From Eledone cirrhosa (Eukaryota), in NCBI GenBank assembly GCA_964016885.1, contig OZ024745.1, forward strand, positions 38,564,001-38,628,000: 64,000 bases of DNA, written 5' to 3'. Below, one piece after another: positions 10,884-60,460 of this stretch; the stretch's first letter is position 1; every line of letters starts with the position of its first letter. A model generated the notes under the pieces. That model saw only the letters and a list, made by a program, of their open reading frames with translations, searched no databases and was not told the DNA's origin. The translations under genes were made by a program, and so were the position numbers.

Positions 10884-10929
<46 letters not shown>

Positions 10930-12840: not shown

Positions 12841-12934
<94 letters not shown>

Positions 12935-13429: not shown

Positions 13430-14018
13430 TATGAGATTAAAAACCTTTTTTGTATAGCAAACCATGTGAACCTTCTTTCCTGATTTATTATTACTCCAAG
13501 TGTTTACAACATAGGAATTACGGCATACCCGCAGCATCACTATGAAAACGCCTTGTTGAGTCAAACCAAGCCAAGCGTTAATATCATCCACTACCTGGAA
13601 TACCATAACTGGACTATACCTAAGTGGACTGCATTTAACTATTATTTGTTACCCCGTATGTATATATATATATATGAAAACAGGGAGAAAGAGACGATTA
13701 GTAGGAAGAAAAATATATTTGTTTATAGACAATAAGCATATCGGTGTCATTGCTATCAAAGGAATGCGTTTCCCTAACAATATATATACTCTTCCCTTCA
13801 TTCTACACATCTCACACATCTTATACACACCACGCATCTCAACGTACACCCACTTACATCTCTCTCTCCACCACCGGACCTTGTTACCCGGAGATTTACC
13901 CATTTGCATTGTCGAGGCTTCCAAACGACTTAAAGATATATATATATATATATATATATATTGCTAGTAATGGTAAAAATTTGAAGCATCACCCTAAGTT
14001 GATTAATATGATATATAC

Positions 14019-16309: not shown

Positions 16310-16492
16310 TGGATTGGCAGTATCGGTAGAGTGTCGGCAGCCATGCTTTGCAAGAAAGAGTTACGGCCCTTTGTGGTCTGAGTTCCAATCCCGCTGATGA
16401 TAACTTTGCCTTTCATCCTCACAGGGTCTATAAAATAAAGTACCAGTAATACACTGTTTTAATTGCTTGCCTTGTGCCAAAAGTAGAAACTA
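16310..16492 (+). mobile_element. tRNA-derived SINE (octopod-like family)
   Basis: A-box-like tggcagtatcggtag, B-box-like gagttccaatccc, body actttgcctttcatcc..gataaaataaagtaccag..ccttgtgccaaaagtagaaac; many copies in the window. Confidence 0.85.
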
Positions 16493-16652
16493 TTACTTTT
16501 CAGTTCACATACAAAAAAATGAATATTTTATTTTAATACACTTTTGTTTTACTGTTCTCTATCATTGTATCAGAATTTTATTTCTTCCTCACCTGTTTCC
16601 TTGAATACTTAGAAGCACATGGGAAAATATAATTAGAGAATATATTTTCTGA

Positions 16653-16840
16653 TGGCGGTGGATTGGCAGTATCAGTAGAGCGTCGGACCCCATGCTTTGA
16701 AGCATAGAGTTACGTCCCTTTATGATCTGAGTTCAAATTCCGCCGAGGTTAACTTTGCCTTTCATCCTTACGAGGTCGATAAAATAAAGTACCAGCAATG
16801 TACTGGGTATTTGCTGGTCTTGTGCCTAAAAATAGAAACA
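16653..16840 (+). mobile_element. tRNA-derived SINE, same family
   Basis: ggcggtggattggcagtatc..gagttcaaattccgccgagg..aatagaaac. Confidence 0.88.
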
Positions 16841-19581
16841 CTTATTTTTTTCTGAAATCGATCGCTTTTGCTATGCGGCGTTTCACGGATATCGTTTGGT
16901 AAAGCACCTGGACATAACTTACACATGACGTAGGATATCTCGCAAATATTGTAGGCGTGGGTAGCATAATAGTTGGGAATGACACCTTTTATTAAAATTA
17001 TTTTTATCCAATGAATGAAGAAAACACAAAACACGACTTATAGGTTTTGCTATAAGGTTTTGGCCGTTGAATTACATATTAAATCTATTCGGCAAGTTCC
17101 AAAGTGTTCCCTCTAACCTTTTTCACTCGATAAAGTATGGTTGACAATAACCTGTTGTAAATGACGCATATAGTACTTGCCAGGAATGGAACCACTGACT
17201 TTATGATTGCGAATAGGTCAAATTCCGTCCATCTTACACCCTAAATAAAAATAGAAATGATCATGCATTTGAACATAAATCTGTTCGATAACAATTGTCC
17301 TGTTACAGAAAACAAAACAAAGAAAAACATTACATTTTTTTTCCTCATTTTAATCATACCAATCCGTATATCGCCACCTTTGACACAATCTCGTTCTTCA
17401 CACAACAAACTACACCGTACAATATATAGTGCTGGGCTCTGATGTATATATATAAAACAAGTAACTAATTTTAACAAGAGGTAGTATATTTCATTAGATA
17501 TTTTATCACTGATCTGAGAAATCAAATGTCTTAGTATCTAATATATCTCAACTCCCAAGATGTAATATAACAGTAGAAGGTTACTTTTTTCTTAATAAAG
17601 GTGATAAGGTTAAACAATAAAAATAACACTCTATCTATCTATCACTTTTTTCTTTTTTTCTCTTTCGTTCTCACTTTCCCTCGCTCTCTCTTTCTCTCTC
17701 TCTCTCTATATTTTTTGGCGGGGGGGGGATGTGTGTGTCTGTATATATGTATGTACATTTTGTTCGTATGTATTTCGTCGTTTTACAATCATATATTTGA
17801 AAAAAGTATAGAATTTAGATTTATACACGAACACTCTTAATATTTTTCTATTGGAGTATAAAGACTAAAGAGAATAAAGAACGAAAATAAATGAAAAAGG
17901 TAAGAGACAAATCAAAACTATGGGAGAAGGTGAAAAATAATTTCCTTTTACTATTGGTTATCTAATCTGGACGACAAATAAAAGATGAGTAATGATCAAC
18001 ACACACGCACAGATACCTTTTCATGCTGAGTTCAATTTGTTCCTTTAGTTAGATTTGCTTACAAACTTTTTTAAGAAATGCCAAGGTTGCAGCATTTTTC
18101 TTTCATTATTTCTTAGTAAAACAATAATATATTGTACAATGCCATGACAAAATTTGTGTTGGATTGTCCGCTGTGTAATAAAGTGTGTAGGTAATTGTCC
18201 GTCTACATTTTGCACAAAATCACAGTTCATCTGCTATAATATCGATAAACAAAATGATCACCAGAAAAGACAAAGTACTTTCGTAAATAACCCAGCTGGA
18301 AAGTTGTCACTCTCTTCCAAAAGTAAGCTGATACTCATAGAATCCCACCAGCCCTACTCCTATATGAACGTATATTTGTATAGATAAAGTTTCTTAATAT
18401 GCAGCTAGTCCCCACCACACACAACACGATAGGTTCTTTTTCTACAATCAAGTGATCTCATCAAGTAATATGCAATGACAATGATATGTTCAATTTTCAG
18501 GTAATACAAATGAACGTACAGTCAAGATGCTGACCCATGGCTCTTTCAACCAACGTTTCAATGATGATAAACTGTTCATAAACAATGCCTTGTATCAAGG
18601 AGTAAATCACCTTATTTTAATAAGCTTTTTATAGAACATGTTACACATAGCATCGGTAATATCTTCGACCATTTCTAGCATGAGAATGTCATAGCTACGC
18701 CGATCACCTATTGTCCAGATCCAGTTTTCATGTATGTGTTCAGTGATACCCTGTGCTTTTTACATCATCCTACCTTATTACGCTACTCACATTTCATAAT
18801 TTTGTTTTAATTCAATATTCAATTATGTATCAGACACTCTCACCTCTCTACATGCCTAAAATTTAAACATTTTCACAAACAATAGTATGGATAAAATATT
18901 AGGCAATACAATTGACAAGAAAAGATTCATCGCACACAGAGACGTTGAACAGGTGCACCATGTCTTCTACTTAATGTATGATCATGTGATGCTGTAACAC
19001 TACACATTTGTTTGTGAAGTTACATGGCTTAATGTTGGGTGTCTAGCTCGCGATCGTTAGGCTATAAGATCGATTTTATGCGATGTATTGAATTATTGTA
19101 CAAGAAAATGAATTTCTCCTTCTCTCAGTACAATCCAGTGCTGAAAAAAAAATGAGTTGCACCCCTAATTCAGATATCTAGAGTTGCACATACTGTGCCG
19201 TGTTGTGACATTGATACGACTCTTAAGAGTACACGGATCTGTGGATGTCTCAGACACGTACAACGTAATTTTATACGTAAGTTGTTCCGTTGATTAAGCA
19301 ATTAGAACACATATCGTCCAAATCGAAGGTGGTCCATTTCATTGTGGAATGAAAATCATAATCATATAGTTTACCATTTGTGAATTAAACGCAACGTTTC
19401 TCCTCCCTAATATGAGTTACTGCTAAAGAACGATTCTAAAAAACATTCTCCACAATCTATTCACTATAAGGCACTTTATATGTAGTATCCTACAACTGCA
19501 ACAATCTACACAAAATACTTTTAACAAATATAGTTTCCTCACATCAATATCCCTATGGGATTTCTTACCCCCCTCTCTCTC

Positions 19582-20034: not shown

Positions 20035-20329
20035 AATATATATATATATATGCTCAATTTAGGAAGTATTAGAATTGAAAAAATATATCCTGTTTTAACC
20101 CTTTTTTAATCCAACTTAACTCTACTATAAGTAACTTTCGAAAACAAAAAAATGCTGCAATACTAAAATCTATACACTATGGATTGCGTATGATTCATAC
20201 AATTCTTGCATCTTCCAAGAACTTGAAAAAATATTATCAAAAAAATAAGAAGGTTAATTTAATGGACATTAATAGACAGTGCATAAACATTGTTAAGCTA
20301 CTGAATAGAGAAATACATACTGTACTATT

Positions 20330-21100
20330 TGTTCCCAAACCGCTTAGTTATATAACAAAACAATTCATTCTTAACCAATCTATTAGATTAATATGGCCTT
20401 CCACATTAGATATAGGGAAAACTATTAAAAATATCCCCGGTAAAAATTGTACCTGCTGTAAGTCAGAAAATTACACTAAATTATGGGGAAATACTAATGC
20501 TGTTATAACATGGTTCATAACATTAGATAATAGAAAGTATATGAAGTTTTTACGTTTTGACATTGACAATTATTATACATCAATTTCCTCTAACCCGCTG
20601 AATAATACGCATTTAATGGCCTTGTACCACACTAACATTATTCGATATGAAATCGATATTGGTCACTAGATACACTATCATAGAATTTGCTAGTAGCCTG
20701 TACAAGAGGAAAAACTGTATATATAGCAACGGCATTAAAATGGAATCACGGGATTCCATCAAACGTCGCTGATCGTGGTTATTTCTCTTTAATAAAGGAA
20801 GTGAATTCCTTTGCATGGAAGCTGGCCTACATAGCGATGATGCGCCTTAAACGTTTAAAATTCTTTGTAATTCTGCGCTCGAGAGAGAACAGTAGGAAAA
20901 CACTTGTAAAAATTCATTAAACACTTTAACTTGTCTCTACCAATTGAATATAATATTAAAATAGGTATTTTCGTGGTTGCCAACCTGGATTCCAAAACTG
21001 ATATTTTTAGCGACAACACTAAACCCGAGACATCTCTAAATTATGTACAAAAGAATTTGAAATGCCTCAACAACCTATCGGGTAGATTATCTACGCTTTC
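20330..21100 (+). pseudogene. Decayed Naiad-type Penelope RT fragment
   Basis: IRLIWPSTLDIGK..LWGNTNAVITWF..KFLRFDIDNYYTSIS resembles the PLE RT motif WKNT..VI.WF..FDI..FYPSI; stops and frameshifts downstream. Confidence 0.65.
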
Positions 21101-21397: not shown

Positions 21398-21754
<357 letters not shown>

Positions 21755-21950
21755 CGTATATATATATTAGTATGTACACGTACATACAAATATGTATGTA
21801 TATATATATACATACACACATATATATATGCACGTATGGATTCACCGAACATTTATTATAATGCTCGGTGTGTTTGTAAACAAACATCAGGTATTAAGCC
21901 GTAGTGTCCAGCAACCATCGTTGCACGTTTGTTCAACACTGACAAAGGAA

Positions 21951-21991
21951 CGCTGTACTAGTTTCAAGCTTATTAGCTATCGTCAGCAACG
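21951..21991 (-). ncRNA. Intact minimal type-I hammerhead ribozyme
   Basis: cguug CUGACGA uagcu aaua agcuu GAAA cuag UA cagcg. Confidence 0.85.
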
Positions 21992-22380
21992 TATACCTTC
22001 CTGTCAGATTGTTGAACATCTGAAAGTATATACATTCCTTATGCATATTAACGGCTGAGTAGCCCAATTTGCATATCGATTGGGTTAATCGGCCGGGCGC
22101 ACCGAAAACGATAAACGGAAAAAATGAAACGAAATTTCATTTCCCACTATTAGTACGGCTGTTACTTAAATATAAGTATGTACACGTACATACCTATATG
22201 TATACAGACGTACAGTAGTACGTATATATATATACATACATACACATATATATATATATCTACGTATGGATTCACCGAACATTTTTTATAATGCTCGGTG
22301 TATTTGTAAACAAACATCCCTAATTAAGCCGTAGTGTCTAGCAACCATCGTTGCTCGTTTGTTCAACACTGACAAAGTAA

Positions 22381-22421
22381 GGCTGTACTAGTTTCAAGCT
22401 TATTAGCTATCGTCAGCAACG
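22381..22421 (-). ncRNA. Intact minimal type-I hammerhead ribozyme (tandem copy)
   Basis: Identical core, 430 bp from the 21951 copy. Confidence 0.83.
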
Positions 22422-23342
22422 TATACCTTCCTGCCAGATTGTTGAACGTCTGAAAGTATATACTTATGGGGCATGTATGTATGTATATATACATACTACT
22501 GTACGTCTGTATACATATATGTATGTACGTGTACATACTTATATTTAAGTAACAGCCGTACTAAGAGTGGGAAATGAAATTTCGTTTCATTTTTTCCCTT
22601 TATATATATATTCATATACATATATACATAATTATATAATATGTGTGAGTCCGTGCATTTCTGGTGATGTGCATCTGCATACACATAAACATAGTCTGTT
22701 CAAATTTACTCGGAATGAGATAAAAAATCTAATTTTGTGAACTCATTATGATAATAAACAATCAAAATATAGAAATTGGTTTTAGCTTCTTACATCGAAA
22801 AATAGGAAAAAGTCAGTTGCCATGAAATCTAAGAGGCTTGCCAGAGATTTTTTAATAAAATATGGCTTCCAAGTTTTTTTTTTCATGCAGATGCTTTATA
22901 TACACTCGATAGCAGAGGCTCTAACTCTGTTGAACACAACGAAATGGATAGGTAAATTGACGGATATGATAGTTGTTTCATAGCAAAAAATTAAAGATGT
23001 CTACTTTCTTTCGTATTTCTTCATTTCTTCTTTTACTGTTTTTCGCTCGTGTATAGTTCTGATTAAATTCCCTCTTCTCCAATCTACTTCTTCATGTTCC
23101 TGATTGTGGCTTCCTATAAACAGCTAGGTTATATATACCTCTATTCTCTCCCTTTCCCTATTCCTATTCAGTTCCTTCTATCATTCATCCCTATACCCTT
23201 ATCACTTCAGTCTTGGTTTTCTAAAGCACTCTATCCTTCTCAGAATAATTTCATTTTTTAACTTTTCTTTCATTCTTTCTATTCCTTCAGTAAACTTTAC
23301 ATAGATATTTCGATTTGATTTTTTATTATTATCTATCATTCA

Positions 23343-23799: not shown

Positions 23800-23907
23800 G
23801 TTATATAGTAAGGTGCATTATTGGTTGTGTAAAATTGTCCAATAACTTTATGTTAGCAATATTAAGTTCTCCACGCTTTTGTATACCTTCAATTCCATTC
23901 GAGGGAA

Positions 23908-24480
23908 CAGCTAGATGATGTAAAACGGAGTATAAGTATCAAAATGAAAATCCGAAGGCAAGGTACAATTCCAATCATTTAATCATTTAATTCAATAAGA
24001 GATAGATCGATTGTGAAGTCATAATCGATTATCACTGATTTCATCAGGTGAAAATGAATTGTCTTAAAATTCTTGATATGAGGGAGAAAAATAACGATGT
24101 TCTCTCACAGAATTCATTCCCTCATATGGAGACACACCAGTCATAAAAGTTTTCAGATTTCTATCGCTGCAGAAGACGCTGGACATCAATTAAATCTGTA
24201 GGGATACAGTCAGTCACAGTTAAATGTGAGTGGGTACACACACACTCCACACCAACATACATCGGCTCGGGGCCAAGGAAAAATATATAGAAATATATAC
24301 ACACATCAACACAGTATTAAACCCGTAGAATTAGCGTGGGTAGGTACACACACACTTTCACACACACCGAAGCGATGTCCGAGAAAAAACAAATATGAGA
24401 ATGTACCAACACAGCACTCACCGAAAGTTAGTTCACAAAGCAGCAGAAGGTATGTCTGTCAAATTGAGATTTGACCGACA
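23908..24480 (-). mobile_element. Solo pLTR-like repeat, homologous to the 41.4-43.5 kb arms; decayed hammerhead (CUGAUGA at 24041-24047)
   Basis: cagctagatgatgtaaaacggagtat...aaattgagatttgac shared with 41485-42075. Confidence 0.8.
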
Positions 24481-25262: not shown

Positions 25263-28200
25263 ATTATTATTATTATTATTATTATTATTGTTATTGTTAT
25301 TCCTTGAATCTCAGTCATTGATGTTGGTTAACTGGAAAGTCCGTTGGATTGAAAACAAGCCACTACCTGCAGCCTCAGATATTCAGGACGTATCGGATGG
25401 TTCTTGCTGTTCCAAGCAAGCATGCCTTTTGAAGCGTTCCAAAAAGCGTGAAGGGGCCGATTTTCTTTAACCATCCCTGGAAACCTTTGGAGATAGTCCC
25501 CAGTGCGCCTATGACAATCGGGATCACTTTGACTTCATGGCAGTTCCAGATCCTTTTCACCTCCCACTTTAGGTCCTGGTATCGGTTAATTTTCTCCCTC
25601 TCCGTCTCTTGCACTCTCGTGTCGAACGGGCAGGCCACATCCACAATCAGGCACGATCTTTTTTCTTTGTCCACAACCACCAGGTCAGGTCTATTGTGTT
25701 CCAGTTTTTTGTCCGTCTGTATCCTAAAATCCCACAGCACCTTCACCTGACTGTTCTCCATCACCGCCTCTGGCCTATGCTCATACTATTTCTCAGAATG
25801 TGGTAGATTGTTTACTTTGCACAGGTGCCAGTGGATCACCCTGCCCATCACATCGTGTCTCCAGCCCTTATAGTGGGTCTGGGCTAGGTGTTTACACTCG
25901 GACACAATGTGAGCCACAGTCTCCTCTCTCTCTCCACAGATCCTGCACAGTGGGCTAGCCTCCTCCTTGTAGATATGGTGCTTCAACCACTTCGTTTTGA
26001 GGGCCTGCTCCTGCGCAGCCATTAGCATTCCTTCTGTAGCCTTTTTGAGGTCTCCTCTTCTCAACCAGTTCCATGTCTGTGGATCTCTAAATTCAGTTTT
26101 CTCAAAGAAGGTACTATGAAGGGATTTTCCCTTAAGGCTGCTCTTCCTCCTTGATGTTATTTCCTCCTTGGACATCCCCTGGCCTACTGTCCCCTCCTTC
26201 AGTACAGTTCTGAGCATTGGCTCCTTACTATAGGTCACGTATTTGTATAGGTTGTTTTTCTCCATCTGAACACAGTCCTCTATGCTGATAAGACCTCTTC
26301 CACCCTCAGATCTCCTTAGGTAGAGTCTATCGACATCACTCCTCTTGTGGAACATGTTGTAGATAGTCAATAGCTTCCTAGTCTTCCTATCCATTTCTTT
26401 TTGTTCAGCAACATTCCATCTCAGAATTCCCGCACTGTACCTAATAATAGACACAGCTCGGGAATTTACTGCGCTTATGGCATTTCTGCTGTTCAGATGT
26501 GACTTCAATACGCTCCTTACTCTCCGAATGTATTCAGTTCTTAACAATTCCTTCATTTTTTTTGTTCTTTATGCCATCAGCCTCCAGAACGCCCAAATAC
26601 TTGTATCCTTCCTCAGAGTCAATTTCCTTTATCATCTCACCTGTTGGTATCTGGATCCCGTTACTTCTGCTCAACCTACCCCTCTTCATCACAATGACTC
26701 CACATTTACCAATACCAAACTGCATACATATATCACTGCTGAAAATACGGACAGTGTCAACAAGCACATCCAACTCCTTCTCACTTTTCCCGAAGAGCTT
26801 AAGATCGTCCATGAAGAGGAGGTGATTGATGGTAAGCTCTCCCCTTCCCAACTTGTATCCTGCTCTCACTTTTCGCAGCATAATGGTCAAGGGCATCAGG
26901 GCAAGGACAAACAACAGAGGGGACAGGCTATCTCCCTGGAAGATACCTCTGTTGATCTTCACGCTTCCCAAGGATACTCCAGTTGATGTCAACTCTGTCT
27001 CCCAGGACCCCATACTCCTGCCCAGCAACTGTCTGATGTTATCTGCCACCCTGAAGACCTCCAGGCTTTTGGTGATCCAGGAATGAGGCACCATGTCAAA
27101 TGCCTTTCTGTAGTCTATCCATCCCATGGCAAGATCAGTGTGTCTCCTCCTGCAATTCCCCATTACCATCTTATCAATAAGCAACTGATCCTTTGTACCA
27201 CGTGACTTCTTTCAGCATCCTTTCTGTTCGTCCGGTAACAAGTTGTTTGTGTGGAGGTGATGGTAGATTTCCTCAGACACAATGCTCGTCAACAGTTTCC
27301 ACATTACGGGCAGACATGTGATAGGTCTATAGTTGGTAACATCATTACCCTTGATTCGGTCTTTCATTATCAGAACTGTGGTACCTTTTGTCAACCACTC
27401 TGGCACCTCACCCGACACCAAGCAGTCATTGAACATGGCCGTCAGCTTCGGGTGGAGGGATGTTAAATGTTTAATCCAATACCCCTGCACACCATCTGGG
27501 CCTGGTGATTTCCAGTTGGTTAGTTTTTTGGCTTGCCCCTTAAGAGTTTCAACTGTGATACTCAAATCAGTCTGTTGTTGTGCCTTCTCACCGATCTCCC
27601 TCTGTACTGTCTCAATCCACCCTGCCTGGGCATTGTGTCTAACATCCTGCTCCCATATTCCTCTCCAGAATGTTTTAGCTTGTTCCGCCCCAGGGATCAA
27701 GTCGTTGCCTATTTCTTTCCCTTCAAGCTGTCCAAACAGCATCTTCTGGTTGTTGTCGAACATGCGGTTCTGTTTATACTGACTGACTCTGTTCTCGTAT
27801 CGCCTGATTTTGGCACTCTTTGCTACAATGCGTTGCTTCAATTCCTCTATTATAATATTTAGCTTTTTACTCCTAGTTTTGTATTTTATTTCCAGTCTAT
27901 TTTTAGTGCCTATGTTTTTTAGTGTCCCATTCAGTAGTGACTCAAGCTTTCCTATGTCATTTCTCATTTCCCCGATTTGCCCACTCAGTCGCTTCTTCCA
28001 CCACGGCTCTGCTCTTTCTTGTCTGTTGTTTCCTCTCGCTTTTATACCAAGTAGTTTCCTCACCGTATTTGCTGTTGCTTTGAGGATATTGTTGCACTGG
28101 TGGAGACTCCTCGCCTCAAGGTATGGGATGACTTTGTTTACCTTAGCTGTTGTTTCTTTTAACTTTTTCCTGTCTACAAATCTTAGGTTCATAGGTCTCC

Positions 28201-28950
28201 CACTATCATTGTTCAATTCATCTACCACTAGATTTAGGATGTCAACCGAATCTTGTCCTAGCCCGTCAGCATTCATCTCCTCAGTGGCCGTATCTCTGTT
28301 CCAGGTATTATTTATCTCAGTATTCAGATCATTGTCTGCTTCGGGTGGTTCCTCCGTTCTCAGGACCTCCTCACCTTCATTTCCCACCGGCTCGCCTGTC
28401 TGGCATACTACACCCGCCATCTCCAAGCCATTCTCTCTGCTCAGTTTCTCCAGTTCCAGCTCGCTTATCCACCCATTAGTTCTTATTACCCGAGCCTGCC
28501 CGGCCAATTTTTGTTCATCTAATTTAAATAAACCAATCTCGTTCCAGATGTTATGCATCCGTCTCCTGTAGCCCCTCTCCTTGGGGTTACTTTTCAGGTA
28601 GCATTGCATAACAGTTCTATTCAATTCTTTCGTCCAGTTGGTTCTGGCCCCTTTCCTTCTTCTTCTTCCATAACATCAGCAGTATTTGGTTGACAGTCAG
28701 GTTCCTGCTGCTGAGCCAGGGGGCACCTGTTGGGTGAGAGTCTGTCACATGACGTTCTAGTCTCCATTTCACCGTTATTCGAACTGTTTATGTTCGATAT
28801 TTAAACACTCTTATCGAGGATTGGCGAATGTATGTTTACATAGCCATCTGTGGATCCGCCATCCCACTTGGCCCTTGTGTGGCATTATCACCACGCTGTA
28901 TACGAACACACATAAACAAACAAACACACGGGCAGAAAGGGCCCCAAAAA
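25263..28950 (-). mobile_element. Near full-length R4/Dong-clade non-LTR retrotransposon with (AAT)n 3' tail
   Basis: Four consecutive minus-strand ORFs form one broken polyprotein; tail at 25263-25300; 5' boundary approximate. Confidence 0.93.
25375..28640 (-). pseudogene. R4/Dong ORF: RT, CCHC zinc knuckle and restriction-like endonuclease; three breaks
   Basis: [88 protein letters not shown]. Breaks near 27200, 26545 and 25775. Confidence 0.95.
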
Positions 28951-36676: not shown

Positions 36677-38830
36677 AGTGTGCGGGGGTGAGTGAGTGAG
36701 CGAAGTGTGTCTGTGTGTGTGTATGTGTATGTATGACTTGGAATCAATGGTATAGAGCACATTTACATTACTACCAAGCAATATATTTAATGTTTACAGA
36801 GATGTTAGTTTAGATTGTACACTGAAACCATCCTATTGCTATATAAATATGTTGTGTTTAAACATGTCTTGAGCTGTCACCTGATAAAATCCTACATGCT
36901 CCGTTTACGTCTATAGTAATATGAACATATGTGGAGCCAAGGCCGGTTTAAGCATGCATGTGATCCTTAGTAAAATTTCTTCATTGATCTTGTGTCATTA
37001 TCTAAGTTTGCAAAACCGAAATTTGCTTCCCTGTAAATATTATCTGTTGTTGGTTAAAATATGTCTTCCCCCAACTTCACTTCAATCAAATTTTACAGAA
37101 CCCATGCGTTCTCATGTATAATAATATACAGTAAATTTTATAACTGATATTTATATATATATATATATTATAATAAAGTTTGTGTAAGTAATTTGAACAG
37201 CTGGTATATCTAAACAATAGCTTCTTCAAACTATCAATGCATGGTAATTTTAGGATTCTTTCTAAATATTCCCAAATAGGGGTTTTAAATTATTTATTTT
37301 AATGACGAAATGTTCCAAACTATCTATATATAATGTATTTACATAAATCAACTAGAAAACATTACGTATTAAAATGGTAAGAAAACGTCTTGACATACGT
37401 TCACGTTTTAAATTTGAATAATGAAAGGTTAACATCCCATATAATTCTGTTTTCTAGATGTTAAAAGTAAAAACTTCTAAGCTATAACAATAAATATTGT
37501 ATGCATATATATGTATAAATTTATTTGTTCACGAGATCTAAAAAAAACATTGCATAACACGTTCTACGAACAAGAGATAAAACGAGATTTCTTTGTAATG
37601 AAAAATATTTCCAAAATGAAATATATATTTCAACTTCGTTGTTCGTCTAATATTTATCTATTACATTTACGCCTCTTTATTTCGTTAACAGACATTAAGG
37701 TTTTTTTAAGGTTTATATTCTTAAAGATTTAAAACTGATTTCATATAGGTATACGTTCAGAGTGTGTTCGCATCGGTGTTTGTCCAATGGTGAATACGAA
37801 CTTAATTCGTTTTTATGAAATTGTCAGGTTGTGAAGTTTATGGTATAAGAGAAAACGGTAATATATAGATAATTGTATATCATTGAAAGGTTAGATACAA
37901 TATGCATCCCCCCCCCCCACACACACACACACGCACACACTAACACACACACTCAAATATATATATATATATAATACACCATAGAAATTCTTGTCGCAAA
38001 ATTCCATCTGTTCTACTATGCTGAAAATACTACACTGTCATCTGGCATATGAATTAATCTTTCAGGATGTATGTTACTAATTTTTAAAATATATTAATAC
38101 CAGCTTATATAATGTTGCTGCAAAATCAGAATTATAATAAAGAAGATCGAGTTCAATTTATGTATTTTTAATAATCGTATACTTACATCTTACGAATCGG
38201 GAGTGCATGTTACTGGAATGTCACGAATAGCACGACGCATATTTCTTTCGCTCGCCCATTATTCCACTCTCCCCTCTATTCAATATTATGCTTTTGTTTG
38301 TGACTTGCCAACTCAAAACAGCGCTTTTATATTTCGTACTATGGTATGTGTAGTTAATTTAAAATGTTTGGTGGTTTCAATATATAACCCATCACCTGAA
38401 GGCAAACAACCATACCAATTGTGTGTCAGTTTTTATTTTTAGACTAACAATATTCATTCATTCCTCCATCACCACCACCACCATCATCATCATCAACTTC
38501 TTTTTCTGATGATCGTTTACTGAAGATGCCGCATTATTTCACATAAATTCTTACATATAAATCACCGTCCAACACATTTGTAAACGGCGTCACTATCCAT
38601 ATGAAGATTACACTGTGCAGACATTCTCGAGAGGACGAAAGATTCAGTCTGCGTTATTGACACGTAAGGCTTTATTAGAATATCATGGAACGTTTGCAGA
38701 TTTTATTAAATATTAATAAGGTGTTTAATTAAAAGTGAAGTCCTGAAACATGTATAAATTAATTGTTTCTACTTTTGGCACAAAGCCAGCAATTATCCCA
38801 GTGTATTAATGCTACTTTATTTTATCGATC

Positions 38831-39015
38831 CATATAAAACAAGTAACATTCAAAGACCAACCAGATGTGAGAAAAACCACATACCATACATCTCAAATCT
38901 ACTTGTGAAAAGCAGAAGAATTGTGAAACACCGGTAAAGGAACCAAATAAATATATATATTTTTATTAAAAATAAGACTCCAGTTGCATTTTCGATTTCA
39001 TCTTTTTTACTTATG

Positions 39016-39054
<39 letters not shown>

Positions 39055-39089
39055 CTTTACAGATATTTCACATATTTTAGCTCAATCAG
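38831..39089 (+). mobile_element. Short hammerhead family element between 89 bp direct repeats of a SINE tail
   Basis: Flanks 38743-38831 and 39091-39179 are direct repeats; decayed motif at 38902-38940. Confidence 0.8.
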
Positions 39090-39108
39090 TCTGAAAGATG
39101 TATAAATT

Positions 39109-39240
39109 AATTGTTTCTGCTTTTGGCACAAAGCCAGCAATTATCCCAGTGTATTGCTGGTACTTTATTTTATCGATCCCGTAAGAATGAAGGGAAAAGT
39201 TAATCTCAGCGGGATTTGAACCTTACACTGTGGGAGCTGG
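39109..39240 (-). mobile_element. SINE copy (minus strand)
   Basis: gtttctgcttttggcacaaagccagc..ctggtactttattttatcga..gggatttgaac. Confidence 0.8.
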
Positions 39241-39287
39241 CCGATTACAAATATTCTCGAAAACATAAACAAGAGATAGACATCATT

Positions 39288-39470
39288 ATGGATTGGCAGT
39301 GCCGGTAGAGGGTAGGACGCCATGCTTTGACGCATAGAGTTACGGCCCTTGCCATTCTGAGTTCAAATCCTGCCGAGGTTAACTTTGCCATTCAACCTTA
39401 CAGGGTCGATAAAATAAAGTACCAGTAATGTACTGGTTAATTGCTGGCCTTGTGCCAAAAGTAGAAACAA
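39288..39470 (+). mobile_element. SINE copy
   Basis: tggattggcagtgccggtag..gagttcaaatcctgccgagg..aagtagaaac. Confidence 0.88.
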
Positions 39471-39611
39471 TTATATATATATATGTATACACTCATGCAT
39501 TCGTACCTACGTACATACCTACGTACATACCTACGTACATACCTATATATTTATCTATATACATACATGCATATGTTCGTACATACATTCATACATGGAT
39601 ACATACATATA

Positions 39612-40813: not shown

Positions 40814-41424
40814 ATACGTAAGTGACTGGATGTGACTATTGGTCTTTAGAGAATCAACAATCTAAATGAATTCAAAGATGTAAAATAAATATTAATTTGC
40901 AGTCAAGTAATTTGTACGCTTCAAATTTAGAAAATTAATTTTCTGCCACGCTTAATTTTCATCAATTACATTGCTGACTTAACCTCTTGATTAATATTTT
41001 ACAACTTCCACTTGTGGAATTTATATGTAACTTCTGTAATTCTTAGACCTGAATTTCCTTATAAACAAAACTTCTACGGAGTAAATATGTCGTTTATGAA
41101 TACTTTGTACTTTACTTCACATAGCACCATCCTCTCAGCTAAATAAATTATTTGAACCATTTGATTCCAGTTCCTCGGCGGACTAACAACACACCCAGAA
41201 GCTAGACATATCCATGCATTGACAAAGTGAAACACACTTCAACAACATGTGTACACCGAAACATATATAGCAGTAAATTTATAATATTTAATATACGAAA
41301 CCAAATTTTACATTTTTGACTTACTTATTTTATTTTACATTACTTCGGAGTAAACAAACCAACCTTCGTACTTCGTCGAGTACTCCAATCTGCATACTGA
41401 GGTTTCCGTAAACAACCAACATAT

Positions 41425-43505
41425 ACTCAAAATAAATAAAATATATGTATATATAATATATGTATATATATATACACATACACACAGCTAGATGATGTAA
41501 AACGGAGTATTTGTATCAAAATAAAGATCCGAAGGCATGGTATATATTTCCAATCAGTTTAATCACGACACATATTTCAATAAAAGATAGATCGATCGTG
41601 TAGCCATGATCGATTATCACTGAGAATGAATTGTTTTGAAATCCTTAATATGCGGGTGAACATTAACGGTGTTCCCTCAGATTGTAGTCCCTCATATGAA
41701 GATCAAGCAGTCAAAACACGGCGACTGCTATCGTCCTCAGTTAGGGTCATAAAACTATCAAGTCTCTATCTCCCAATAGCTGTAAAAGACGCTGGATATC
41801 AATCAAATCTGTAGAATTACAGTCGGTCACAGTTGGTACACACACACTCAAACACTAACGACACCAGGTCAAAGAAAAAAATATATATAGATATACCTAC
41901 ATAGCATCACATATGTAGAACTACAGACGGTCACAGTTAGTGTGAGTGAGTACACACACACTCACAGACACCGACACGAGGTTAAAGAAAAAATATAAAT
42001 ATACCAACAAAGTATTCACCGAAAGTTAGTTTACAAAACATCAAATGTTATATTGGTAAAATTGAGATTTGACGATATAAATTCGAAAAATTGGGTCAAC
42101 CGCAACTCTATACACACTCATGTATTTTCAGTTCAATGTTCTGCTATACGTGTATAGATTTAATTGTAACATCCGTATCTTCCTAAAAAGTGTATGTTTA
42201 GGTATATACACATCCATGTGAAGAGCAAGTAGTCAGCTCATATCGAACTCAGTATGTGCCGTTGTCCCATTGAGAATCTGAGTACCCAAATCTGTGCGTG
42301 CAAGCAACCTCTATGTAGGCCACCAAGGGGCTCTGTGTAGGGCTGGGTATTTGGGTTAAGGTGTCAGTATGTGCGATTTCCCGTCATGTGGGCCCTTGGG
42401 CTTTTAAGATAGGTGTTTGAGTGGTGGAAGTATGTTATCCAACACAATAGGCAAAATAAAATAACAAAGAATAGCAAAACCCCAGAGAATGTGTGTAGGC
42501 CCATTAATGGTGTGTAAGTATTATTGTCAAATCTGTAACCGTGAGCACTCCATGGTTAGATGATCACGGATCAAAACCTAGTGTAGTGTTCAATCGATAG
42601 GAACGTGACCAGTAATATCTGTGGGACCTCAGTGTCTAAAGAAACCGGGTACTGTGTGTAGAATTATGTTTAGAGAGCGTAATTAGTCTTAACTGAGTGT
42701 GTAATACGTCTAGCTATATCCTAACCGAGAGAACTCAATGGTTAGGGTATCTTAAAGTAATGGTGAATGCGCGTAATCGGTCTTACCTGAGTGTGTAATC
42801 ATTCTAACTATTTACTAACTAGGTATTCTAATGTGCACTCAGCTGTGAGAAATCTGTGGAAACAGGCCGAGTACCGTTTGTATATATTTTTATATATTTT
42901 CTTTCTTTTCTCGTGTCGGTGTGTGTGAGTGTGTGTGCACTCACTCACACTAACTGTGACCATCTGTAGTTCTACAGATTTGATGCTATGTTGGTATATG
43001 TATACATATTTTTTTTCTTGAACCTCGACCTCGCGTCGTGTGTGTGTGTGTATGTGTGTGTACCCACCCACATTAACTGTGACCGACTGTAATTCTACAG
43101 ATTTGATTGATGTCCAGCGTCTTTTACAGCTATTGGGAGATAGAGACTTGATAGTTTTATGACCCTAACTGAGGACGATAGCAGTCGGCGTGTTTTGACT
43201 GCTTGATCTTCATATTCGGGACTAAACTTTGTGAGTGAAGACTGTTAATTTTCTCCCTCTTATCAAGGATTTGAAGACAATTCATTTCCACCTGACGAGG
43301 TCAGTGATAATCGATCATGGCTACACGATCGATTTATATTTTATTGAAACATGTGTAGTGATTAAACTGATTGGAAATTTATACCATGCCTTCGGATCTT
43401 TATTTTGATACAAATACTCCGTTTTACATCATCTAGCTGTGTGTCTCTCTCTCTATATATACATATATTATATATACATATATTTTATATATTTTGTGTA
43501 TATGT
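41425..43505 (+). mobile_element. ORF-less Penelope-type element with ~600 bp inverted arms (41425-42010 / 42875-43505)
   Basis: Long inverted repeat; the right arm has a hammerhead, while the left arm has its core deleted. Confidence 0.85.
43289..43360 (+). ncRNA. Type-I hammerhead motif with extended stem II
   Basis: cac CUGACGA ..aucgaucaug gcua cacgaucgau.. GAAAC augu GUA gug; base of stem II imperfect. Confidence 0.68.
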
Positions 43506-46818: not shown

Positions 46819-46880
46819 ATATTTATTAAAATAACAGATTAAAGTTTGCTTAAACTTTAATCTGTTATTTTAATAAATAT
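46819..46880. repeat. Perfect hairpin, 29 bp arms with a GCTT loop
   Basis: atatttattaaaataacagattaaagttt gctt aaactttaatctgttattttaataaatat, running into (TA)n. Confidence 0.92.
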
Positions 46881-46898
46881 ATATATATATATATATAT

Positions 46899-47092
46899 AA
46901 CGAAGGAAATGTGGTAAGGAACCAGGTGGACCATAACGCACCAAAGTCCTCAATACTTAGGGTAGTAGAGTGGGTAATAGGAACAAATAAGACCCCGACG
47001 GCTGAGCTCAAGCCGTTTCGACGGCAAATTCTGTACAGAATTAGCCGTCGAAACGGCTTGAGCTCTGCCGTCGGCGTCTTATTTGTTCCTAT
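46899..47092 (-). mobile_element. pLTR 3' fragment ending in a fold-back palindrome (46977-47092) on a half hammerhead
   Basis: Centre aattctgtacagaatt; both arms read GAAA cggc..gccg UC; (TA)n on both sides; homologous to 21398-21591. Confidence 0.85.
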
Positions 47093-47178
47093 ATATATAT
47101 ATATATATATATAAAAGACGTAAAATAAGAAAATTTTAAAAAAATTTTAAAAGATTAACTTACTTACTAAAATTTTCA

Positions 47179-47257
47179 CTCCAACTAATTACTTACTGCA
47201 ATGGGATAAATACAGTTACGTAATAAACTGTTGAGAATTCATTGCATCATCAGGGAG
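47179..47257 (-). ncRNA. Hammerhead copy in the inverted arm, GAAAC mutated to GUAAG
   Basis: cucc CUGAUGA ugcaaug..cauugca GUAAG uaauua GUU ggag. Confidence 0.65.
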
Positions 47258-47627
47258 GTCTATTCTCAGCTAAGTCTCCGGGCAATGCGCGGACACTGGG
47301 TACTCATATAAAAATAATAATAATTCAGTAAATGGAACAGCTAGCGGGAACTGGATTCCATGTACTGAAAATCTCGCTGTCACTGGTCAAATGGCAGATT
47401 CTAAAGAATCAATCACGTGACACTGAGGCTAGTCGGTAGGAGTGGGATGGTAAGATGACAGAAGCCTACTAACACACCAACAAATTAGTAGTGGTTTTGG
47501 CAGGTTTGCTCGACAAATAAGTGATTTGGAGATAAATATAGAGAATTTAGTATATCTACTAACATATATATTTTTATATGAGTCCCCAGTGTCCGCGCAT
47601 TGCCTGGAGACTTAGCTGAGAATAGAC

Positions 47628-47706
47628 CTCCCTGATGACGCAATGAATTCTGAACAGTTTATTACGTAACTGTCTTTATCCCATTGCAGAAACTAATTAG
47701 TTGGAG
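47628..47706 (+). ncRNA. Type-I hammerhead ribozyme with extended stem II
   Basis: cucc CUGAUGA cgcaaug..36 nt..cauugca GAAAC uaauua GUU ggag; palindromic AACUAAUUAGUU. Confidence 0.85.
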
Positions 47707-48172
47707 TGAACATTTTAGTAAGTAAGTTAATCTTTTAAAATTTTTTTTAAATGTTCTTATTTTACGTCTTTTATATTATTGTTCTGCATCCTCCTGCATT
47801 GAACCACCTAGGTACTATTACATAACCTGTGTATTTGCTGGCATTAGCGTACATCTGTTCGCATATGTTAGTAGATATACTAAATTCTCTATATTTATCT
47901 CCAAATCACTTATTTGTCGAGCAAACCTGCCAAAACCACTACTAATTGTCTGTTGTGTTAGTAGGCTTCTGTCATCTTACCATCCCACTCCTACCGACTA
48001 GCCTCAGTGTCACGTGATTGATTCTTTAGAATCTGCCATTTGACCAGTGACAGCGAGATTTTCAGTATATGGAATCCAGTCCCCGCTAGCTGTTCCATTT
48101 ACTGAATTATTATTATTTTTATATGAGTCCCCAGTGTCCGCGCATTTCCTGGAGACTTAGCTGAGAATAGAC

Positions 48173-48251
48173 CTCCCTGATGACGCAATGAATTCTCAAC
48201 AGTTTATTTCGTAACTGTCTTTATCCCATTGCAGAAACTAATTAGTTGGAG
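48173..48251 (+). ncRNA. Type-I hammerhead ribozyme (tandem copy)
   Basis: Same motif 545 bp downstream. Confidence 0.85.
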
Positions 48252-48428
48252 TGAAAATTTTAGAAAGTAAGTTAATCTTTTAAAATTTTTTTTATATTTT
48301 CTTATTTTACGTCTTTTATATTATTGTTCTGCATCCTCCTGCATTGAACCACCTAGGTACTATGACATAACCTGTGTATTTGCTGGCATTAGCGTACATC
48401 TGTACGCATATGTTAGTAGATATACTAA

Positions 48429-48473
<45 letters not shown>

Positions 48474-49003
48474 GCATACGTGCGTTCATATATATATATA
48501 TATATATATGTGCGTGTATAATTATATCATGTTAGATTTTAATGCTTTCAGGAGATAGTATGCTAACAGAGTCTTAGAGTTATTAAATAAATAATAAATG
48601 CCATAGTAGCAGATATATTCACAAAACATTCATATATAACGAGAGACGAATCTTACGAGTGAATATTAAAGCTGAAGGGGGAAATCTCAGACATATTTCG
48701 TTATATAAATACTGGTAAACACGGGAGTACAGACAAAAATGTCCATAAATAATTAAACATAAATCGGTAAAATATATATGGATAAATAATACGTAAAACT
48801 ATAGAAAGTTTTGGAATTTATAACTAAGTACTATGACCTGAAATTAATATATAACTTATGTAAATGTCTGAGGCGGTTTTGCAACAACGATGAGGACAAA
48901 AACATTCTCCCTGCCTTATCTATTACCTAACCAACGTGTACATTTATATATGATGCAAATATCTAGCTACTTATTCATCTGTATATTGCTATTATTAAAT
49001 CTT

Positions 49004-49034: not shown

Positions 49035-49928
49035 AATGTACATCAGTTGCATGTATGATACATATTTTAAGCGCCGGTTGGAAATGTATCATTCTTTAAT
49101 ATGGAAATGTTCATCTGTCTGCCGCATGGTAATATGTATGAGTGAACCACTCATAACTCTCTGATCTCTAATTTGTATTCCTTGCAGAGATTTATTTAAA
49201 GATACTTTCAATACATTCCAGCTCTTACAAGAATAATCTACTCTCATTTCTTTATGTATTCAGGTTAAATATGGAATTATTTCAAAGCCATATGTTTCAA
49301 AGCATGTTAACATATTACTTATATATCGTATGGACCTCATAATTCATATTTTTGTATGTTTCAGCATGCTTCTGTGCAATAGTTAATCATCCTGCTATTT
49401 CAATCTCAGAAATGTTACTGCATTTTCGTTAAACCTTTTCGGTAATACGAAATTGTTGAAGCATAAAACCTCTCACTTCCTGGTACCCGTCTAATACAAA
49501 AGAGAATTGCGCTTTCAACAATGGTTAGTCAGGGCTTTGTTCCAGCATCTATCAGTCACACTGATTCAGCATACATGCTATATATATATATATATATAGT
49601 TTGTGTGTGTTATTATGTGTTTGATGTGAGGTAGAAACATCATGTTATGTCACAGAAACATCAACACTTTTATAATCATTACAAATGTGTTCTATGTTTT
49701 TATAACTATATACATCATTCACAAAGTGATTAATTTCATAATTTCGATAATTCTGCTAGATCCTCTTTTCTCCTATATATTGTTAATTTGCCCTAATGAT
49801 ACTGATGCTTCACACAGTCTGAAGATGTTACACTACATTTCTATTTAACTTTATCTATTATCTAGTTCATGTGGATCGTTAAATATTCTCATAACCAGAA
49901 GAAAATAACGTTATTTAAATTCCTGGTC

Positions 49929-50092
49929 GGTGGATTGGCAGTATCGGTAGAGGGTCGGACGCCATGCTTTCCAGCATAGTTACGTCCCTTTACAATCTGA
50001 GTTGACTTTGCCTTTCATCCTTACGGGGTTGATAAAATAAAGTACCAGAAATGCACTGGGTAATTGCTGGCCTTGTGCCTAAAGTAGAAACA
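49929..50092 (+). mobile_element. SINE copy with internal deletion
   Basis: ggtggattggcagtatcggtag..gataaaataaagtaccag..aagtagaaac. Confidence 0.85.
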
Positions 50093-50664
50093 GTTATTTA
50101 AATTCCTGGTCAAGATATAATTCAACAACGTTTTATATTCTCCCGACAGGAGCACATTAACTAAAGCAACTAGATTTATTTGAAGTCATTGAACCAATTC
50201 ACAATCAGAAACTATCGCTGAGAAATATTTGCCAGCTCTTGAAAGTTTTCATAGTCGACTGTATTGCCTTAATATATTTCCTAAATCAAATTCAGAGAAA
50301 CGTCAATATTCTTTTTCCCAGAGGCTAACATATATGAGTTTCACAATCATCCATTCTATTAAGATTTACTTAGCAAAAAATAACGACAAAAGAAAGAAAC
50401 AAAATAACCCTAAATATTAAATCTAATATCAAGTGATATTTATGAAAAAAAAATAATTCCCTCTCCTTTCCTCACATTCTCTCTCTGTCTCTCTTTCTCT
50501 CTCTCTCTGTCACTGTCTCTTACATTTTCCAAATATGATACTATTTAATGTTTCGTAATTTTTATGATTTGTTACATAACACTTAATAGAATGGATGTGC
50601 GTGTGTTTGTGCGAGTCTGTGTTTCGATTGAGTGTGTTGGTGTGCGTGTATGAATATTTAAATA

Positions 50665-51204: not shown

Positions 51205-53005
51205 GCAAAAGTTTTATTTAAAACTGTTGGGTTACAACGAGTAAATATTTTATAACTGATATAAAGCACTCAACACGTTTTGGAGTAGATATACGATTTA
51301 AACAAATGGAAACTATATTTATAAAACCATATTTATTTCATTATACATATTTCAGGGATACCATATTAAAAATATGGCATGCCTTCTTCAGATAAAATAC
51401 AATATATAAGCAGTTTTATAAATAAATTTGACGTACCATAAACATTGATCAACTTCCATTTAAAAAGTTGGTTTGGTAGTGAAATGTTTGTAAATATTTA
51501 GTGTTAAGCACAGTTAGAAAGAAAGACGGAGAGAAGGAATAAATGTATGTAAAGAAAAACAGAGAGAGATAGAGAGAGATATGGGAGAAAGAAATAGTGA
51601 GGGGGTGAAAAATGAGAGGCAGCTGAGGCAACAGATGAATAATAATAATTCATCATACAAATTGAGAGATTTAGGAGGGAGGGAGTACAGTAATTATTTA
51701 TTTATTTATTTATTTAGTTATAGTGTTAAGGAAACGGAGAGAAAAAATAAATAAAGAGAAAACAGCGATACTTAAATTTCATCATGTATAGAGGGAGGAG
51801 AAGAAAGAGCTATATCTAGAGAGGAGGATGACAGATTTACAACTTTACGTTATGTCCTATCAATTTGAATTATCAATTCATATGAATTGGGTATTATAAT
51901 GTATATATCACTATTCATGAATGAGACATAGATATATAATGTGTGAAAAATAATGACCATATGTTTAGTTTAAACATTCTTAGGTCGATATACCAAAAAC
52001 TGAGATAAAACTTCAAAAATACATAAGTATATATGTACTTTCCGGAAAAAAGAAAGAAAGAGAAAAAGAGAAGGTCATCTCAAGTTCTAGTTGACACTAT
52101 AGATATACACGTGAACTTACGTGATCAGCTCTGTAATTTCTTATTTCACATGAAAAAATTTTCCCTTGCGTTATAAAATATTTTACTATATATATATATA
52201 CATACATACACATACATACAAATATATATTAATATTAATATTCCTGCCCTCACATACATGATTATCGTTCATGTATAGAATAGACAACAGATATCAATAT
52301 ATCAAAACGCTAAGAATACTTTCATCACTCCCTAGAGTATCTAGGGCCTTAAAAAAACACAGTATGCCCCCCATATCAACCACAGAAATCAACCCTTCCA
52401 ATTTATCTGACAATATATTGCCAAGTTCATTAGAAGCAATCAGAACCAAAAAACAAACAAAAAACCAAAATTATTCAACAAGACTTATTTAGCAGAAATC
52501 ATTAAAAAGATTTAGGAGACCCTGTTGTTCTACAGATGCTCTTATATTTAGTATAGAAGTTTATCTAGCGTAAAATTTATTCAATAGATTGGGAGCATCA
52601 ACATTTTAGGGTAGTTTAATTACATCATTAGTATATATTTATGAAGAAGGTTTAAAAAAGAAAAAGTTGAAGGAATCGAAAGATTTATCGTCAGGTTTCA
52701 TAATTAATTAAATATCTTAACTAAATATACTATATTTTAAATTTATATTTATATTTAAACGTTGAGTTCAATCTATGTCTGCAGCAACTGAATAAATTGC
52801 TCCTTAGATTAAGGGAATTTTTAGATTTTAATATAAAGAATATCTCCTCCACGAAGAGGTCACATGTCTCAGATGAGGAATTAAAAGGAATCCCTCTTGA
52901 GACTATATTCCAAAACAACGAATATCCAACGTTATTATGTTTAAGTTGCCAGAGTAAGCCTGATAGTGAAGTAGAAGATTTTTTGCCGATTTTTTACCAA
53001 TACGT
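51205..53005 (-). mobile_element. 3' fragment of a Naiad-type Penelope-like element (endonuclease C-terminus + long 3' UTR)
   Basis: 52730-53000 reads STSLSGLLWQLKHNNVGYSLFWNIV..CDLFVEEIFFIL..LNLRSNLFSCCRHR, colinear with the end of ORF 11076-12527. Hammerhead downstream; (TA)n on both flanks. Confidence 0.7.
51341..51396 (-). ncRNA. Hammerhead motif, stem I out of register by one nt
   Basis: uuau CUGAAGA aggcaugccauauu uuu aauaugguaucccu GAAA uaug UA uaa. Confidence 0.6.
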
Positions 53006-53044: not shown

Positions 53045-53110
53045 GAAGGCGCATGGCTTAATAGTTAGAGCTTGCAATCGGTTGTGGGTTCAATTCTCGG
53101 ACCGGGTGAT
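53045..53110 (+). mobile_element. tRNA-like SINE head (second SINE family)
   Basis: gaaggcgcatggcttaatagttagagc (A box) .. gggttcaattctc (B box). Confidence 0.6.
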
Positions 53111-53285
53111 GTATACGATGCTAGCGATATCTAATAAGCTTGAAACTTGTACATCGTTCCTGTGTCAGTGTTGAACAAAAAGTTGACGTGGTTGCCTAAA
53201 CACTGTACGGCGTAATTTGGTGTTTTTGTTTGTTTACAAACAAACCGAGAATTATAATAAATGTTCGGTAAACCGATACGTGCAT
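53111..53285 (+). mobile_element. Diverged copy of the 430 bp hammerhead unit; motif at 53116-53156 with mutated core
   Basis: Reverse complement of ~21828-21996; cgaug CUAGCGA..GAAA cuug UA caucg. Confidence 0.75.
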
Positions 53286-60267: not shown

Positions 60268-60460
60268 TACCAGTAATTTTGGGGGAAGGGAAAGTCGATT
60301 GAACGACCCCAGTACATTACTGGTGCTTTATTTTATCGACCATGTAAGGGTGAAAGGCAAAGTTAACCTCGGCGTGATGTGAACTCAGAGCGTAAAGGTC
60401 CGTAACTCTATGCAGTACATCATGGTGTCCTATTCTCTACCCATACTACCAATCCACCGC
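60268..60460 (-). mobile_element. SINE copy (minus strand)
   Basis: ttttatcgacc..tgaaaggcaaagttaacctcggcg..tgaactcag..ccaatccaccgc. Confidence 0.85.

Follow-up and report, generated by a model that had tools for sequence, protein, structure and literature searches.

The element described here lies at 47109-48436 of a 64-kb window (the whole stretch of DNA that was analyzed), which consists of microsatellite-rich eukaryotic DNA crowded with retrotransposon remnants. Its main part (47569-48436) is a head-to-tail array, 1.6 copies long, of a non-coding 545-nt unit in which each copy has its own type I hammerhead, and an inverted, 5'-truncated copy of the same unit, referred to below as the arm, is joined to it on the left (Table 1). 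Self-comparison of the window aligns 47569-47898 with 48114-48443 at a period of 545, without gaps and at 96.7% identity, and 10 differences were counted over 321 nt of the direct copies. Numbered from 47569, the direct part runs through unit positions 1-545 and then 1-323, and the arm, read on the minus strand, runs through 295-545 and then 1-208. Both 3' ends point outward into (TA)n, with which each shares a few TA bases, and they are offset from one another by ~115 nt in unit coordinates. No target duplication is discernible at the left (TA)n tract. When all three copies are compared over 204 nt, they show 7, 10 and 11 pairwise differences and almost no indels. An earlier note on this DNA had described near-identical tandem copies with a period of 545, an inverted copy of ~450 bp upstream and (TA)n on both flanks, and each of these features was recovered. 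Tandem Repeats Finder has a period limit of 500 and is hence blind to this array. According to the self-comparison, there are no further copies of the unit elsewhere in the 64-kb window.

Table 1. Features of the hammerhead tandem element and its flanks (window coordinates)
Feature	Position	Strand	Remarks
Left (TA)n target tract	47090-47113	.	Last bases overlap the outer end of the arm (TA microhomology); from the sequence and the junction print
Inverted 5'-truncated arm, head-to-head with the direct array	47109-47567	-	459 nt, 96.3% identical to 47863-48321 (reverse complement)
Third hammerhead, in the arm	47257-47179	-	U-A at the stem II base; GAAAC -> GUAAG
Junction of the two 5' ends (47567/47569), head-to-head, short AT-alternating patch	47563-47572	.	
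Full 545-nt non-coding unit, copy 1	47569-48113	+	37% GC
Type I hammerhead 1	47628-47706	+	CUGAUGA at 47632, GAAA at 47689, predicted cut after 47702
Predicted 545-nt monomer between the two predicted cut sites	47703-48247	+	Inferred from the hammerhead positions
Partial copy 2, unit 1 to ~323	48114-48436	+	Its end is the right 3' end of the element
Type I hammerhead 2, same core	48173-48251	+	CUGAUGA at 48177, predicted cut after 48247
Right (TA)n target tract	48433-48509	.	Overlaps the last bases of the element

As the earlier note had stated, the unit has no ORF worth the name: the longest ORFs that start with ATG are 26 aa on the plus strand and 35 aa on the minus strand, and the longest stop-to-stop frame is 91 aa. 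No ORF for RT plus GIY-YIG exists inside the element, and an autonomous PLE was rejected on this ground. A search for a coding remnant in the unit gave nothing better than E 0.005 by tblastn (120 queries) and iE >= 1.1 by profile, and the DNA of the unit has no significant match to the coding PLEs of the window (best E 0.19). As a separate observation, 47718-47811 contains two GTAAGT words (47718 and 47722), a pyrimidine-rich stretch and an AG at 47810-47811, and an ATG farther on (47864) opens 26 codons. This could be an intron of 90-94 nt, comparable to the introns in PLE 5' UTRs, and is given as a lead only, such words being common in AT-rich DNA.

The two direct hammerheads can be written as CUCC-CUGAUGA-C, stem II, A-GAAA-CUAAUUAG-UU-GGAG. 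Stem I has 4 bp, stem II has 6 bp and is extended by a second 6-bp helix (50 nt for the whole stem II region), and stem III is formed by a perfect 12-nt palindrome (AACUAAUUAGUU), which yields a short stem in a monomer, is available over all 12 nt to a dimer and pairs with itself at ~-11 kcal/mol. Dimeric PLE hammerhead variants are reportedly the subject of a 2017 paper in RNA Biology. The cores that the earlier note had placed at 47628 and 48173 are indeed 545 nt apart, but these positions mark the first bases of stem I rather than CUGAUGA (Table 1); N17, in comparison, was correctly assigned to the U of GUU at 47702 and 48247. Its description of the motifs as intact holds for the core, where 13 of 13 positions are consensus in both direct copies, but not for the helix beside it: base pair 10.1-11.1 is absent next to the core, and C faces A (48184 and 48233 in copy 2) before the 6 bp begin. 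Because of this C-A, a strict hammerhead descriptor matches neither direct motif, and an Rfam scan also returned no hammerhead match at gathering score or at E<=10. The matches that Rfam did list by E-value were dismissed as hairpin and TA-repeat noise with no relevant family. Moreover, the count of two hammerheads is right for the direct pair and overlooks the third one in the arm, which departs from the consensus core and is predicted to be dead given its change from GAAAC to GUAAG. A relaxed type I descriptor was matched by 0 of 2,000 dinucleotide shuffles of the unit and only once in 30 shuffles of the 64-kb window, matches so rare that the direct hammerheads are not chance occurrences.

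The hammerhead fold of the monomer has -13.5 kcal/mol, versus -16.0 for a mis-fold that pairs the core (2.5 apart). In a two-copy precursor, the pairing probability is ~0.9 for stem II, 0.35 and 0.13 for stem I and ~0.09 for an inter-copy stem III, the last figure coming from a program that cannot model the pseudoknot of a double hammerhead. The 545-nt monomer as a whole folds at -126 kcal/mol (z -4.35), and none of 100 shuffles was as stable. The earlier note had envisaged transcription through both ribozymes; at this locus, such a transcript would probably have to traverse the arm. Upon read-through from the left, hammerhead 1 is the first predicted partner of the arm and hammerhead 2 its predicted partner in the full-length fold, so that one of the two motifs would be blocked either way.

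The window contains other elements of this kind. A coding Hydra-type PLE (10321-13660) has a 753-nt inverted 5' arm (10321-11029) and ends in (TA)n, and its 5'-truncated RT + GIY-YIG-type ORF (11019-12527) has the Hydra CxCX5C linker as well as the CxxC and CxH motifs. Its hammerhead-like motif (13327-13426) has CCGAAGA in both copies, an 81-nt stem II region and a palindromic stem III; the distance from the arm end inward to the cut site is 59 nt, as against 70-74 nt in the 545-nt element. After this hammerhead, no significant ORF start was detected (profile iE 0.5). Remnants matching the protein profile of the ORF are found at 7781-7927, 20100-21056 and 52757-52987. Pfam has no name for the Hydra-type ORF or for any of 4 relatives (4/4), and PDB gave no match; the Hydra clade call for this ORF is based on its motifs, on Atlas look-alikes and on the clade as described in PMC8557442. 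To judge from the context, the host is an animal; by eye, the RT motif of the ORF is nearer to the octopus Hydra family than to the two coral ones, which is a weak hint. In addition, a second hammerhead family was identified on the minus strand at 21770-22603, with CUGACGA at 22416 and 21986 (period 430), U-U at the stem II base, a palindromic stem III, a partial tandem, a 147-nt inverted arm (22457-22603) and (TA)n ends. Its layout is that of the 545-nt element and its sequence is unrelated. Since these two neighbours have the same layout, the 64 kb contain no fewer than three structures of this type, the 545-nt element included.

A third, decayed copy of the second family is present on the plus strand at 53045-53283 (80% identity); its core is broken, and a two-sided change keeps stem I paired. 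Words resembling pol III A-boxes and B-boxes were seen by eye upstream of it, recalling schistosome hammerhead SINEs, and ARAGORN found no tRNA in the stretch before it.

In public sequencing data, the unit is at least partly present in 17 runs of 12 studies, none of which is on record as RNA, and half or more of its words are found in only one run. Among the 20 runs listed, X1, X18, X5 and X6 were examined in detail; 13 further runs, X5 and X6 among these, have a word share of 0.15 or less. All of the 29 bins of the unit are covered both in X1 (1,772 contigs) and in X18, a set of RAD reads with the same species label (8,325 reads), neither count being a copy number. The best run has 57% of the words, and the window differs from it at many sites, so that this run may represent another population or species. 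Real pieces of 150-291 nt come from two other organisms (X5, and X6 at depth 2.5 only). The high depth of X5 and X6 at 48276-48313 was set aside as chance, being produced by AT-rich matches of 31-43 nt. Among the pieces listed, some span the right end point of the element (47891) and the copy boundary (48113/48114), and the whole unit is therefore repeated, not just a terminal repeat. Exact-pattern scans gave no match in metagenome contigs (two patterns), viral contigs or prokaryote genomes.

The variation in these runs was also inspected. None of the 40 variant rows listed affects the catalytic core, 48184 or 48233, which falls short of proof, the full set having 65 rows more. In the loose ends of X1 and X18, stem II variants that have diverged still carry C and then G directly after CUGAUGA, and the stem I change 48173 C>T, common in X18 (609 of 1,474 reads), preserves the pairing as U-G. 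The letters at 48103 and 48277, rare in the family (~2% of X1 depth), are common to all window copies. Together with the private changes of each copy, they are consistent with a single insertion, copied from one template, that then decayed neutrally, and a different population or species could be an alternative explanation for them. In one X1 contig, 47890 and 48324 are fused on opposite strands, both points being no more than 3 nt away from the two 3' ends of the element. Two other signals were rejected. The read-end piles of X18 do not mark element ends: 5 of the 6 listed coincide with AATT sites in the window, while the last lies at most 1 base from an AATT made by a common variant. We infer that these AATT read ends reflect a restriction digest, which is not on record; loose ends at 47945 and 47955 sit at another AATT. 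The other rejected signal, 987 reads in which 48364 is joined to 47820, is no proof of long arrays, the unit being equally continuous there in the window. Separately, 48060 is where two X1 contigs depart from the unit and continue for ~134 nt in unlike sequence on which they agree with each other, possibly from a longer or coding partner.

The layout of the locus is best compared with that of PLEs. PLE insertions, as characterized in PMC8557442, are partial tandems in microsatellite targets that often carry, at their 5' end, an inverted and 5'-truncated copy, and have a 30-40 bp tail and no clear target duplication. The element shows what is expected of PLEs (EN+), namely a partial tandem with an inverted 5'-truncated copy in a (TA)n target without clear duplication, and the inverted arm that the earlier note had listed is an ordinary PLE feature and not a novelty. 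In the tables of PMC8557442, (TA)n is preferred by 26 of the 27 listed Hydra-clade families, and the predicted hammerheads of Hydra families have a 1x1 mismatch at the stem II base in 15 of 25 cases (14 U-U, 1 U-C) and U at the cut site in 10 of 25. The same source predicts a hammerhead in Penelope-1_HM whose stem III is nearly the same as that of the unit, an inverted 5' copy with one hammerhead per strand in Penelope-13_HM, and a C...A core in PLE-X1_cBra, a non-Hydra PLE of Chara. Because such mismatches are tabulated both in Hydra families and in PLE-X1_cBra, an unpaired stem II base is a known PLE hammerhead trait. According to PMC3088659, this base pair is the most conserved one after A15.1-U16.1, with U-U as the best-tolerated mispair and others rejected in the search reported there. 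PLE hammerheads are further described as having a short helix I, a long helix II, a palindromic helix III and low activity in vitro (PMC4209133), and the tie between a palindromic stem III and dimeric cleavage, which the earlier note had invoked, is published for PLE and animal hammerheads (PMC4209133, PMC7229834).

With the Hydra-clade PLEs of PMC8557442, the unit thus has in common the (TA)n target, the partial tandem with a 5' inverted copy, a type I hammerhead that lies in sense orientation close to the 3' end, with stem I short and the base of stem II left open by a 1x1 mismatch, a 4-bp stem III that is palindromic and a U at the cut site, which is common there. It differs from them, as they are described in that source, in having no RT-EN ORF, C-A instead of U-U, a 50-nt stem II region and an end offset of ~115 nt instead of 30-40 nt. 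The likeness lies in layout and hammerhead build, not in a sequence match to a named Hydra family. The assignment to the Hydra clade is circumstantial, since Naiads also target (TA)n (PMC8557442) and a Poseidon/Neptune-like RT remnant lies in the window at 3687-5210 (+), where a PLE-like RT and GIY-YIG remnant of this other type was observed.

The unit also resembles animal retrozymes, which PMC7229834 reports across invertebrate phyla, with abundant circles in coral, mussel and axolotl; for an axolotl motif with U-U at the stem II base, that source reports better cleavage by dimers. According to a preprint by Li, Clavereau and Pollet (2026; 10.64898/2026.07.22.740005), animal retrozymes (51-972 bp) derive from PLE pseudo-LTRs and are non-autonomous. 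Like the animal non-LTR retrozymes of these sources, which are non-coding, low-GC, multi-copy tandem units with a type I hammerhead each and lie beside PLEs, the element has 1.6 units, two hammerheads 545 nt apart (with the C-A mismatch in both), a GC content of 37% (below 50%), no coding capacity and multiple copies of the whole unit, and the label retrozyme-like in the earlier note was well chosen. Its 545 nt fall within the range given in the preprint and exceed the 170-400 nt of the RNAs that PMC7229834 shows to circularise. Its hammerhead is of the PLE type (4-bp stem I, long stem II, C-A), in contrast to the canonical coral type described for retrozymes. Arms are not discussed for retrozymes in these texts: the word "inverted" appears 0 times in PMC7229834 and once in the preprint, in a reference title. 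Chlamys PLEs such as MRC1 (PMC8557442) are alike in being non-coding derivatives with pseudo-LTRs and head-to-tail insertions; unlike the unit, they are green algal, mostly lack hammerheads and have a demonstrated 3' similarity to autonomous partners. Plant LTR retrozymes, as summarized in PMC7229834 and the preprint, likewise have two hammerheads in direct repeats around a non-coding middle, and the locus can be drawn in that style as 323 + 222 + 323 nt. A plant LTR retrozyme was nevertheless rejected: measured against those summaries, the hammerheads are type I and not type III, the ends are not TG...CA, there is neither a purine tract before the second repeat nor a 4-bp duplication, and an inverted arm is present.

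Taken together, the 545-nt repeat is very probably a hammerhead repeat that is non-autonomous and mobilised by a PLE, in other words an animal non-LTR retrozyme, and a member of the Hydra clade is the fairly likely mobiliser. The fullest statement, that 47109-48436 is a single insertion made by a Hydra-type PLE into (TA)n from an uncut linear tandem transcript, seems to us about equally likely to be true or false as a whole. The anatomy, the absence of an ORF, the multi-copy family and the coding Hydra-type PLE in the same window are direct observations; the course of events would then be as follows. A tandem array of the unit would be transcribed, and a PLE RT-GIY-YIG protein acting in trans would nick both strands of a TA tract. 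cDNA synthesis would have two internal starting points, which lie 187-189 nt and 70-74 nt downstream of where the hammerhead is predicted to cut, and the two cDNAs would stop early and join head-to-head, leaving 1.6 direct units and an inverted arm. There is a biochemical precedent in Frangieh et al. 2024 (PMC11167929), where, by its account, a Poseidon PLE protein nicks and extends both strands of AT-rich DNA in vitro, using two internal RNA start sites 3' of the hammerhead; cleavage is not needed, unprocessed RNA is the main substrate and no RNA ends were found at the hammerhead cut site. By analogy, this mechanism accounts for the choice of a TA target and for two 3' ends that point outward while the 5' ends meet head-to-head. 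To judge from this locus and the one contig that joins 47890 to 48324, the ends look like PLE start sites and not like a random permutation; the earlier note had spoken of a permuted array.

The template must have been longer than one cut monomer, because the direct cDNA crosses the cut site twice. It is either an uncut tandem transcript or a ligated circle, and DNA alone cannot separate the two. The earlier note had read the 1.6-unit array as the mark of a circle, a reading that loses its force in that the same array would also arise from an uncut tandem transcript and that unprocessed RNA served the PLE in PMC11167929. The uncut transcript is somewhat likelier, since the ribozyme is of the PLE type, probably slow and dependent on a dimer. 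With ~1.5-3.5% private change per copy and an arm that would pair with one hammerhead, the copy at this locus is probably a dead end.

Other explanations were weighed against insertion from an uncut transcript. The published retrozyme cycle with the same mobiliser, in which dimeric cleavage would free the 545-nt monomer, a host ligase would close it and PLE RT would roll round the circle, is a possibility that we regard as doubtful. It draws on the consensus core in both direct copies, the self-pairing stem III, the C and G retained in diverged stem II variants, the U-G retained at 48173, the stability of the monomer fold and the two crossings of the cut site, as well as on the circles of PMC7229834 and its axolotl motif that works better in dimers. 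It has to contend with C-A at the most conserved non-core pair, where U-U is the mispair tolerated best according to PMC3088659, with a 4-bp stem I, a GUU site and a competing mis-fold, and with a low inter-copy stem III probability (the pseudoknot being outside the model). PLE-type hammerheads are moreover poor cleavers in the assays of PMC4209133, PLE insertion in PMC11167929 is independent of cleavage and without RNA ends at the cut site, and, as reported in the preprint, 1 of 9 Xenopus retrozyme dimers cleaved. The linear template, for its part, has to face the abundance of retrozyme circles in the three animals of PMC7229834, a monomer that folds better than its shuffles, an offset of ~115 nt where the PLE tail described in PMC8557442 is 30-40 nt, and the lack of an autonomous partner among the PLEs of the window; the fixed ends of the start-site reading are those of the locus and of one contig. 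A more specific version of the circle, in which the family would be a circular-RNA parasite of a Hydra-clade PLE, its C-A hammerhead cutting as a dimer and the circle being copied from two fixed cDNA starts ~72 and ~188 nt past the ligated junction, one per nicked strand of the TA tract, is offered tentatively and appears rather unlikely.

It is improbable that the locus is debris of a coding PLE, with two 5'-truncated pseudo-LTR ends in tandem plus an inverted one and no self-standing 545-nt family: in that case no other locus should have the join after 47891, which is nevertheless present in X1 records 1 and 2 and in a record of organism B; furthermore, organism C has a record over 47904-48168 (at depth 2.5 only), all 29 bins are covered and neither tblastn nor profiles detected a coding remnant in the unit. 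The same coverage, and the listed pieces that cross the 3' end point, contradict the possibility raised in the earlier note that the unit occurs only as the pLTR of a coding element. What speaks for debris is that, by the account in PMC4209133, truncated PLE ends carry hammerhead pairs 100-700 bp apart on opposite strands, that the agreeing ~134 nt beyond 48060 could be a coding partner, and that X1 depth varies ~40-fold along the unit (loose ends being judged among those listed). Duplication and fold-back of a single repeat copy at the DNA level, by replication slippage or template switching between TA tracts, or an assembly artefact is more improbable still; although alternating AT sequence is found at the junction and at both ends, and other long inverted pairs exist in the window, each of the three copies has its own substitutions and almost no indels, and the same layout, a known PLE product, recurs on two unrelated elements of the window.

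The hammerhead tandem family itself appears to be new; its kind is already known. No description of the family was found in the literature, which is weak as a negative given that the search lay mostly outside subscription papers and that supplements may list it or its core variant. Hammerhead tandem repeats are known from many animal phyla and their PLE origin has been argued in print; the 64-kb window holds two such families. The locus is a tidy example in which the PLE signature (inverted arm, two 3' ends, TA target) is found on a retrozyme-type unit, with a coding Hydra-type PLE of the same layout beside it. If circles and PLE-driven copying were both true, it would help to decide whether PLE hammerheads and retrozyme circles are transposition intermediates or by-products. 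If the family were indeed a circular parasite, each arm-bearing insertion would be a genomic record tying retrozyme circles to one PLE clade, and the unit would be a small, ready substrate for asking whether PLE reverse transcriptase rolls round a circle.

Several further repeats were observed in the window. A 190-nt repeat (46900-47092 and 21400-21591) ends in a nearly perfect 116-nt hairpin (-95 kcal/mol), and each of its 2 copies adjoins a hammerhead element across a TA tract, which probably reflects a common target preference; directly left of the first copy lies a nearly perfect 62-nt AT-rich palindrome (46819-46880). A 2.1-kb element at 41419-43505 has inverted ends of ~570 nt (85%) and an internal 123-nt repeat, with a decayed further copy at 23907-24475, and descriptor scans found no hammerhead in either. 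A long inverted pair at 8220-10297 (307 nt at 93%, plus 122 nt) adjoins the Hydra-type endonuclease remnant at 7781-7927. Besides these, two non-LTR retrotransposon remnants with Pfam RVT_1 matches are located on the minus strand at 167-1476 and 25375-28675, and a SINE-like dispersed repeat of ~190 nt is present in at least 6 copies that are 75-94% alike (16307-16849, 38743-39486, 49928-50099 and 60308-60460).
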